DNA of 64,000 nt from Escherichia phage DCP80. The stretch lies in sequence record PQ671644.1; one strand, 5' to 3'. Both the position numbers and the translations under genes were made by a program. Shown one piece after another: positions 56,036-56,107 of the stretch (its first letter is position 1; each line of letters opens with the position of its first letter). Under the pieces are notes generated by a model. That model made no database searches. It was not told where the DNA came from and saw only the letters and a program-made list of their open reading frames with translations.

Positions 56036-56107
56036 GATATATTCCTCAGTCTCATTAAATTAAAATTTTATTATCCTGGGGTCATTATACCATGACCCCG
56101 TTGGTTT

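Follow-up and report, generated by a model that had tools for sequence, protein, structure and literature searches.

The window analysed here, a stretch of 64,000 nucleotides from Escherichia phage DCP80 (PQ671644.1), carries two stem-loops on its minus strand, each of which lies in front of an early gene of a T4-type Gaprivervirus. Site 1 sits between the stop codon of gene 55.3 and the start codon of gene 55.2, and site 2 precedes ndd (Table 1). The initial annotation had placed the hairpins directly upstream of a 55.x gene and of ndd, and this holds, the 55.x gene being 55.2. At site 1 the window is 98.7% identical to Escherichia phage 212 and 94-98% identical to VR20 and VR7. Phage 212 is the closest complete genome and the whole of it was used for the promoter census, while JS98 was used in part. 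In phage 212 the ORF upstream of site 2 ends right at the -35 (gap of 0 nt); in the window the upstream context of site 2 is cut by an N-mask (60917-60962).

The window itself is a composite. It is made up of blocks of about 3-4.5 kb which come from non-adjacent places, in both orientations, and are 91-100% identical to the phage 212 genome. Runs of N are present at 2053, 7308, 12027, 16528, 24922, 29046, 33153, 36995, 40719, 44127, 47537, 50945, 54358, 57668 and 60917, and an unmasked block junction lies near 20765. Positions 12251-15628 are the reverse complement of 44163-47536 (95-97%), and positions 10370-12026 are a direct repeat of 27032-28715 (71-92%). It seems that the window mixes several related phages or is a shuffled assembly. 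Because of this composite nature, the 4.8 kb separating sites 1 and 2 is not a natural distance; in phage 212 the two sites are located about 41.6 kb apart. The ac-gene region, which separates ndd from the topoisomerase gene, holds a tandem duplication of about 260 nt (59834-60348). Its halves correspond at 59834-59881 and 60092-60139 (98%) and at 60003-60084 and 60267-60348 (84%). Each unit bears the hairpins GGCGTCCAAAGACGCC and GGGCTAACGAGTAGCCC, and phage 212 has a single copy.

Read on the minus strand, both stems are perfect, with 8 of 8 positions paired. This is in agreement with the initial annotation of a perfect 8-bp hairpin around TATAAT at 56078-56099. The second hairpin, given there as 60866-60887, also has 8 perfect pairs, but its true span is 60865-60888, which is one pair more. 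The stem of site 2 can be extended by four pairs (CUCU/GGAG) across a 2-nt bulge. The pattern GGGGTC-N4-14-GACCCC occurs twice in the window, at sites 1 and 2, against 0.00 occurrences expected from 100 dinucleotide-preserving shuffles. In predicted folds of the intergenic RNA the hairpin is the dominant element at both places, with -15.9 kcal/mol (z of -2.2) for site 1 and -20.6 kcal/mol (z of -2.9) for site 2. A search of positions 55500-61200 with the Rfam covariance models (E up to 1) gave no match at site 1 or site 2. A U tract was looked for 3' of the stem at both sites and is absent at both, the tail of site 1 (AGGATAAT) having 2 T in 8 nt and that of site 2 (CTGGAGCA) 1 T in 8 nt. On the plus strand (56077-56110), site 1 resembles a terminator, in which TGGGGTCATTATACCATGACCCCG is followed by TTGGTTTTTA. 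This T-rich tail is present because the stop codon of 55.3 and a run of A precede the stem. The terminator-like appearance of the plus strand is probably incidental; site 2 is without it.

Table 1. Features of sites 1 and 2 and of other members of the early-promoter family in the window.
Feature	Position	Strand	Description
Stop codon of gene 55.3 (TAA)	56110-56108	-	
Site 1, stem-loop GGGGTCAT-GGTATA-ATGACCCC	56078-56099	-	8 bp stem, 6-nt loop
Site 1, 5' arm GGGGTCAT	56099-56092	-	
Site 1, loop GGTATA	56091-56086	-	holds 4 bases of TATAAT
Site 1, 3' arm ATGACCCC	56085-56078	-	holds 2 bases of TATAAT
Site 1, -35 position (AGTAAA)	56112-56107	-	poor match; overlaps the 55.3 stop codon
Site 1, promoter core: TGn and -10 TATAAT	56092-56090 and 56089-56084	-	family PWM score 24.3 bits
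Site 1, predicted transcription start	56077	-	A, 7 nt after the -10, first base past the 3' arm
Gene 55.2, Shine-Dalgarno GAGGA and ATG	56047-56043 and 56035-56033	-	42 nt downstream of the site 1 hairpin
Site 2, stem-loop TGGGGTCA-GAGTATAA-TGACCCCA	60865-60888	-	8 bp stem, 8-nt loop
Site 2, 5' arm TGGGGTCA	60888-60881	-	
Site 2, loop GAGTATAA	60880-60873	-	
Site 2, 3' arm TGACCCCA	60872-60865	-	
Site 2, promoter: -35 TGTACA, 17-nt spacer, -10 TATAAT	60900-60895 (-35) and 60877-60872 (-10)	-	family PWM score 36.8 bits
Site 2, predicted transcription start	60865	-	A, 7 bases after the -10, last base of the 3' arm
ndd, Shine-Dalgarno GAGGA and ATG	60839-60835 and 60827-60825	-	38 nt downstream of the site 2 hairpin
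-10-embedding hairpin TAGTATGGGGATA..TGTTCCCATACTG	17409-17449	+	family member, with G·T pairs
-10-embedding hairpin TGATGGGATAGTT-gcagtat-AATTATCCCATCA	51167-51205	+	family member
-10-embedding hairpin GATGGGATAA-ctgtagtatga-TTATCCCATC	51501-51538	+	family member
-10-embedding hairpin TGGGATA-gtgTATAAT-TATCCCA	53594-53631	+	family member
-35-embedding hairpin AAAGGGG-TGTACAAG-CCCCTTT, then -10 TATCAT	57206-57241	-	upstream of nrdH
Upstream class: canonical terminator AGGACCC-TTCG-GGGTCCT and T run	58188-58254	-	family member

At both sites the TATAAT hexamer constitutes the -10 box within a conserved family of early promoters. The window contains a repeat family of about 60 nt with the consensus AAAAAGTAGTGTACA, 17 nt, (C/T)ATAAT and then GAYYCCAT. 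A promoter weight matrix (PWM) made from these repeats, with the spacer masked, identifies 15 sites in the window; in phage 212 it identifies 38 sites, all of which are on the early strand. Sites 1 and 2 both fit this family, which bears out the earlier description of the hexamer as -10-like. A scan of viral contigs for the pattern AGTGTACA-N17-TATAAT finds at least 120 contigs, mostly with one match each. Site 2 is a full member of the family, its TGTACA-17-TATAAT having 10 of 12 consensus matches. Site 1 is without a -35 because the stop codon of 55.3 occupies that position, and it is also without an AT-rich upstream region. It has an extended -10 (TGgTATAAT), and a TGn/-10 class of promoters has been described (PMC2988021). 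Site 1 may be a weak or degraded promoter which relies on TGn plus the -10.

Alignment with the family indicates that transcription should start at 56077 and 60865. As these predicted starts coincide with the 3' edge of the stem, the promoter's own RNA would be without the hairpin and only read-through RNA from upstream would carry it. A literature search for Term-seq and start-site papers on T4 found no data set for T4-type phages. Two types of conserved leader are seen 3' of the family -10, namely GATTCCATACTGAGTTAC...GGAGAATAAAATG and TATCCCATCAACTACTGAGGAG...ATG (examples in the window at 16849-16890, 50135-50160 and 58187-58150). Their conservation reaches the start codon and takes in GGAG, which is the RegB cleavage motif in T4. 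These leaders may contain processing or translation signals which are common to many early genes.

Analysis of the phage 212 promoters reveals a spacer-to-discriminator helix score of at least 11 in 15 of 38 promoters, where 1.6 are expected by chance. The chance expectation was derived from mismatched pairings of spacer and discriminator among the promoters, and none of the 2000 permutations reached 15 promoters at this score. The remaining 23 promoters score 7 or less, so that the distribution is bimodal. It is conceivable that the hairpin has no function of its own and merely persists, a single cassette having been copied to other places through duplication or gene conversion. In favour of this, motB and ndd of phage 212, which are unlinked, have near-identical cassettes, and sites 1 and 2 of the window match at 80% over 35 nt. 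However, under neutral drift one would expect stems in partial decay, and such stems are rare here; the scores are also bimodal. Many unrelated stem sequences occupy the same place, and orthologous promoters of different genera have stems which differ yet are fully paired. We therefore consider an origin by spreading without function improbable.

The helix is retained at orthologous promoters of other genera, where its stem sequences are different but compensated. At the ndd promoter the arms are TGGGGTCA/TGACCCCA in the window, TGAGGACA/TGTCCTC in Kosakonia phage 305 and CGAGAATCAT/ATGGTTCTCG in JS98. At the 55.2 promoter they are GGGGTCAT/ATGACCCC in the window, TGGGACCA/TGGTCCCA in JS98 and, among other phages, TGAGGAC/GTCCTCA or GAGGAC/GTCCTC. 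Hairpins are likewise present at motB and sp in both JS98 and phage 212, again as parts of the promoters, and their stems are unrelated. In a 16-row alignment in one register, both sides change in 6 of the 9 pairs. The covariation score is 0.526, against 0.228 after shuffling and 0.10-0.20 when the register is slid; the rows were picked for pairing, which biases the percentage of paired cells, and the unbiased support is that of the permutation test described above. The covariation largely refutes the assumption that a dimeric repressor or activator binds the palindrome as an operator overlapping the -10. An inverted repeat over the -10 is the classical layout of an operator, and palindromes of terminators have been reported to be able to serve transcription factors as sites as well (bioRxiv 10.64898/2026.08.19.745784). 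However, the half-sites vary (GGGGTC, GGGACC, GGGAGC, GAGGAC, GAGAAT, GGGATA and TAGGGT), all of them with compensated partners, and the registers vary as well, with loops of 5 to 14 nt and tolerance of G·T pairs. An operator is thus highly improbable.

Imperfections of the stems are all of one kind. Among 24 distinct hairpins, obtained with a procedure tolerating G·T and A·C equally, 7 internal mismatches are G·T and 0 are A·C, a small count for which the two-sided binomial p is about 0.016. Phage 212 alone gives 2:0, which is too small, and the count was repeated over more loci. The restriction to G·T mismatches fits selection on a sense-strand structure, most simply RNA, and an RNA-level role of the hairpin is likely. 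The same count bears on a DNA-level explanation, in which the inverted repeat forms a cruciform or a single-strand hairpin at the -10 and aids or impedes promoter melting, or is cut by a structure-specific nuclease to start recombination. The symmetry centre does lie in the AT-rich -10, where melting starts. But a cruciform folds both strands, yet every G·T on the sense strand is an A·C on the other strand, and stems of 8 bp with loops of 6-8 nt are in general short for cruciform extrusion. We regard an action of the inverted repeat at the DNA level as rather improbable.

The position of the hairpin relative to the promoter is not constant. In phage 212, 15 promoters have a hairpin which embeds the -10. 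In these the gap separating the upstream stop codon and the -35 ranges from -5 to 12 nt (median 3), with a mean of 1.9 T in the 8 nt after the stem. The hairpin embeds the -35 in 4 promoters, where the gap is 7 to 13 nt and the spacer is partly T-rich. A separate upstream hairpin is found in 8 promoters, with a gap of 29 to 54 nt in seven and 368 nt in one, and with a mean of 5.4 T in 8 nt; the upstream terminators with a UUCG tetraloop have 7-8 T in the 8 nt after the stem. No promoter of phage 212 has two hairpins, and the probability that the -10-embedded and the upstream hairpins would fail to overlap by chance is 0.01. Members of each kind are present in the window (Table 1), where the terminator at 58188-58254 directly adjoins the promoter GTGTACA-17-CATAAT. 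Hairpin position tracks the space after the upstream stop codon, the hairpin lying inside the promoter if the stop abuts the -35 and being replaced by a separate T-tailed terminator where about 30-55 nt are free after the stop. This dependence on the gap, together with the absence of double hairpins, suggests that the -10-embedded hairpin takes the place of an ordinary terminator hairpin, fitted into the only promoter positions that are free where non-coding space is otherwise lacking. The position rule supports the hairpin as a 3' module of the upstream transcription unit.

The initial annotation had taken the structure to be meaningful, which is borne out, and had proposed that it might be an RNA-level stabiliser, a terminator or a modulator of promoter melting. 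RNA-level roles fit both the 7:0 count of G·T mismatches and the interchangeability with T-tailed terminators. They also agree with the report that the stem-loops of promoter-early stem-loops (PeSLs) reduced downstream lacZ expression (PMC2839356). A terminator in the canonical intrinsic sense is unsupported at both sites: in the absence of a U tract (2 and 1 T in 8 nt), efficient intrinsic termination is unexpected from the sequence. Modulation of promoter melting is disfavoured, because hairpins of the same family also lie over the -35 or wholly upstream and are never added to a -10 hairpin. Such interchangeability in position argues against a role tied to the -10. It argues likewise against an action at the DNA level, since in this family the hairpin may instead cover the -35 or lie 40-50 nt upstream, and the position at the -10 is not required.

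Comparison of related loci reveals an insertion bounded by the cassette. Locus L023 corresponds to locus L025 with an insert of 354 bp, which comprises one ORF of 95 codons and an additional cassette copy, and both breakpoints are located inside the 38-nt cassette upstream of 55.2. This insert agrees with the assignment of the sites to the PeSL type; together with the description of PeSL cassettes as recombination junctions (PMC2839356), it also speaks for the recombination variant of the DNA-level explanation. Among the close relatives of the present phage no cassette-bounded indel was found, the nearby difference being the loss of gene 55.4. Two-piece matches among these relatives were considered as a cassette-bounded indel and rejected, as gene 55.4 is missing instead. 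In T4 only 13 nt lie between 55.3 and 55.2 and there is no cassette, so that the T4 transcript maps are not transferable to site 1. Related cassettes are present in Dhakavirus and Kanagawavirus.

One cassette skeleton, aactcttGGGNNCAgagTATAATGNNCCCAc, occurs in phage 212 at 32960, 43946 and 72431, where it serves motB, ndd and an ORF at 72.5 kb, and in JS98 at 39471, where it serves 55.2. Two central stem positions of this skeleton are always compensated (GT/AC, AC/GT and AG/CT). The sequences suggest that cassettes may move or convert between loci. Variants of the arrangement are also seen. At nine loci of other T4-like phages, the region about 60-20 nt upstream of 55.2 contains a TTTGCTA resembling a MotA box and, 3' of it, a hairpin (ATAGAGAT..ATCTCTAT or TAGGGTTCT..AGAATCCTA) in which a TAGAAT or TATAAG -10-like hexamer is contained. 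This is a middle-promoter counterpart of the early cassette, similar to the PmSLs of Comeau 2014 (PMC4122927). At five other loci, from phages with an Ndd of about 61% identity, the sequence upstream of ndd forms a simple hairpin, GGCCGC(G/A)T..ATGCGGCC, and there is no TATAAT. The loop of this hairpin varies, and in one of the five it looks inverted with respect to the other loci. The element is a stem-loop without the promoter half.

We consider it fairly probable that each site is a composite cassette of the PeSL type, that is, a sigma-70 early promoter with a built-in stem-loop which acts on read-through RNA. The 5' arm fills the free part of the spacer, the loop takes the first four or five bases of the -10, and the 3' arm is formed by the stretch from the -10 to the predicted +1, ending at about -1. 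As we infer from the predicted start, the hairpin would be carried only by read-through RNA, right 3' of the stop codon of the upstream gene. There it would serve as the 3' module of the upstream unit, which may attenuate or pause transcription or block 3'-to-5' exonucleases, and it would insulate tandem early units from each other. Its placement within the promoter would be due to the upstream stop codon directly adjoining the -35, with non-coding space available nowhere else. The conserved cassette of about 40 nt may also be a substrate of homologous exchange for the gain or loss of small genes.

It is also possible, although unlikely, that the -10-embedded hairpins without a U tract are a distinct device and not terminators, acting either as a roadblock or factor-assisted stop or as a protective 3' cap. 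As a stop, the device would be factor-assisted or roadblock-assisted and would need RNA polymerase bound at the overlapping promoter. As a cap, it would remain at the end of the upstream cistron once the conserved leader had been cleaved (GGAG/RegB or RNase E); if this were true, promoter and RNA-decay barrier would be one co-evolving unit, placed by the stop-codon spacing rule.

The presence of the composite cassettes at these sites means that elements of the PeSL type organise early transcription in Gaprivervirus too. To a concept which rests mainly on RB49/phi1, the present analysis adds three testable regularities, namely the spacing rule, the exclusivity of the positions and the restriction of mismatches to G·U. 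These regularities point to an RNA-level role for the upstream transcript and make the RNA-level hypothesis testable. They also provide an annotation rule for the boundaries of transcription units in T4-like phages, a group with many candidates for phage therapy.

Several known systems resemble sites 1 and 2. Intrinsic terminators share with them a GC-rich hairpin right 3' of a stop codon, but the two sites are without the defining U tract and have 1-2 T in 8 nt. In the promoter-coupled terminators of bacteria (Fletcher et al. 2026, bioRxiv 10.64898/2026.08.19.745784), the terminator and the promoter of tandem units share DNA; the stem-loop overlaps the -35, the spacer contains a T tract and the 3' end falls about 10 bp before the start. 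This layout resembles that of the -35-embedding phage members with a partly T-rich spacer, such as the one at 57220-57241. In contrast, the stem of sites 1 and 2 spans the -10 and ends at about -1, there is no T tract and the spacer is not T-rich. The promoter-coupled terminator was rejected for the two sites, as the stem lies over the -10.

The T4 genes e, soc, 49 and I-TevI provide the paradigm of a promoter inside a hairpin (summarised in PMC3014915). In read-through-specific translational control of this kind, long transcripts fold and are silenced. As in these genes, the whole hairpin of sites 1 and 2 would be present only on transcripts started upstream, the predicted start being located at the 3' edge of the stem. 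However, the hairpins of the T4 genes sequester the ribosome-binding site, whereas those of the two sites end about 40 nt before it, the distance from the stem to the ATG being 42 nt at site 1 and 38 nt at site 2. The Shine-Dalgarno sequence lies outside the stem and is unpaired in the predicted folds, the exception being a weak long-range pairing of 5 bp at site 2. Translational control of this type is distinctly improbable here, and a T4-type hairpin-occluded translation initiation region was rejected, with both Shine-Dalgarno sequence and start codon outside the stem.

The closest likeness is to the PeSLs, which were defined in RB49/phi1 as strong sigma-70 early promoters with a stem-loop in five positional classes (Arbiol 2010, PMC2839356). 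The concept has been extended to PST/T4 and nt-1/KVP40 by Comeau et al. 2014 (PMC4122927), and PeSL-like sequences had previously been noted in JS98. Promoter activity, lowering of expression by the stem-loop and formation of mini-circles are published, according to PMC2839356, only for RB49/phi1; the stem-loop of RB49 PeSL211/210 caused a fall in lacZ comparable to that of rrnB T1. For comparison, the RB49 intergenic sequences were read directly. The native stem-loop of PeSL211/210, GGGGAT-CACGT-ATCCCC, is followed by the T-poor TATACTACAC and is thus also without a T run. PeSL199/198 reads TTGACA..GGGGATAT-AGCATA-ATATCCCC and matches the geometry of site 1 base for base, with 8 pairs, a 6-nt loop and a 3' arm which begins at the fifth base of the -10.

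Sites 1 and 2 share with the PeSLs a sigma-70 early promoter combined with a stable stem-loop of G-run and C-run, its location 3' of the preceding gene's stop codon and 5' of the next gene's Shine-Dalgarno sequence and ATG, the existence of several positional classes including overlap with the -10 box, and the repetition on the early strand. As for the small-gene indels bounded by PeSL cassettes, one such case is seen at the orthologous 55.2 locus of other phages. The PeSL arrangement of a -35, about 17 nt and a -10 is present at site 2, and site 1 has it only as a TGn/-10 or 'half' PeSL, having lost the -35. The Gaprivervirus consensus also differs in its GTGTACA -35 region and in GAYYCCAT after the -10, against TTGACA in the PeSLs. 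Both sites are new Gaprivervirus examples of the known PeSL kind, which forms a genome-wide family here that the initial annotation had missed, and they imply no new mechanism. In the accessible text of the PeSL papers there seems to be no counterpart to the rule of stop-codon spacing, to the mutual exclusion of the hairpin classes or to the bias towards G·U.
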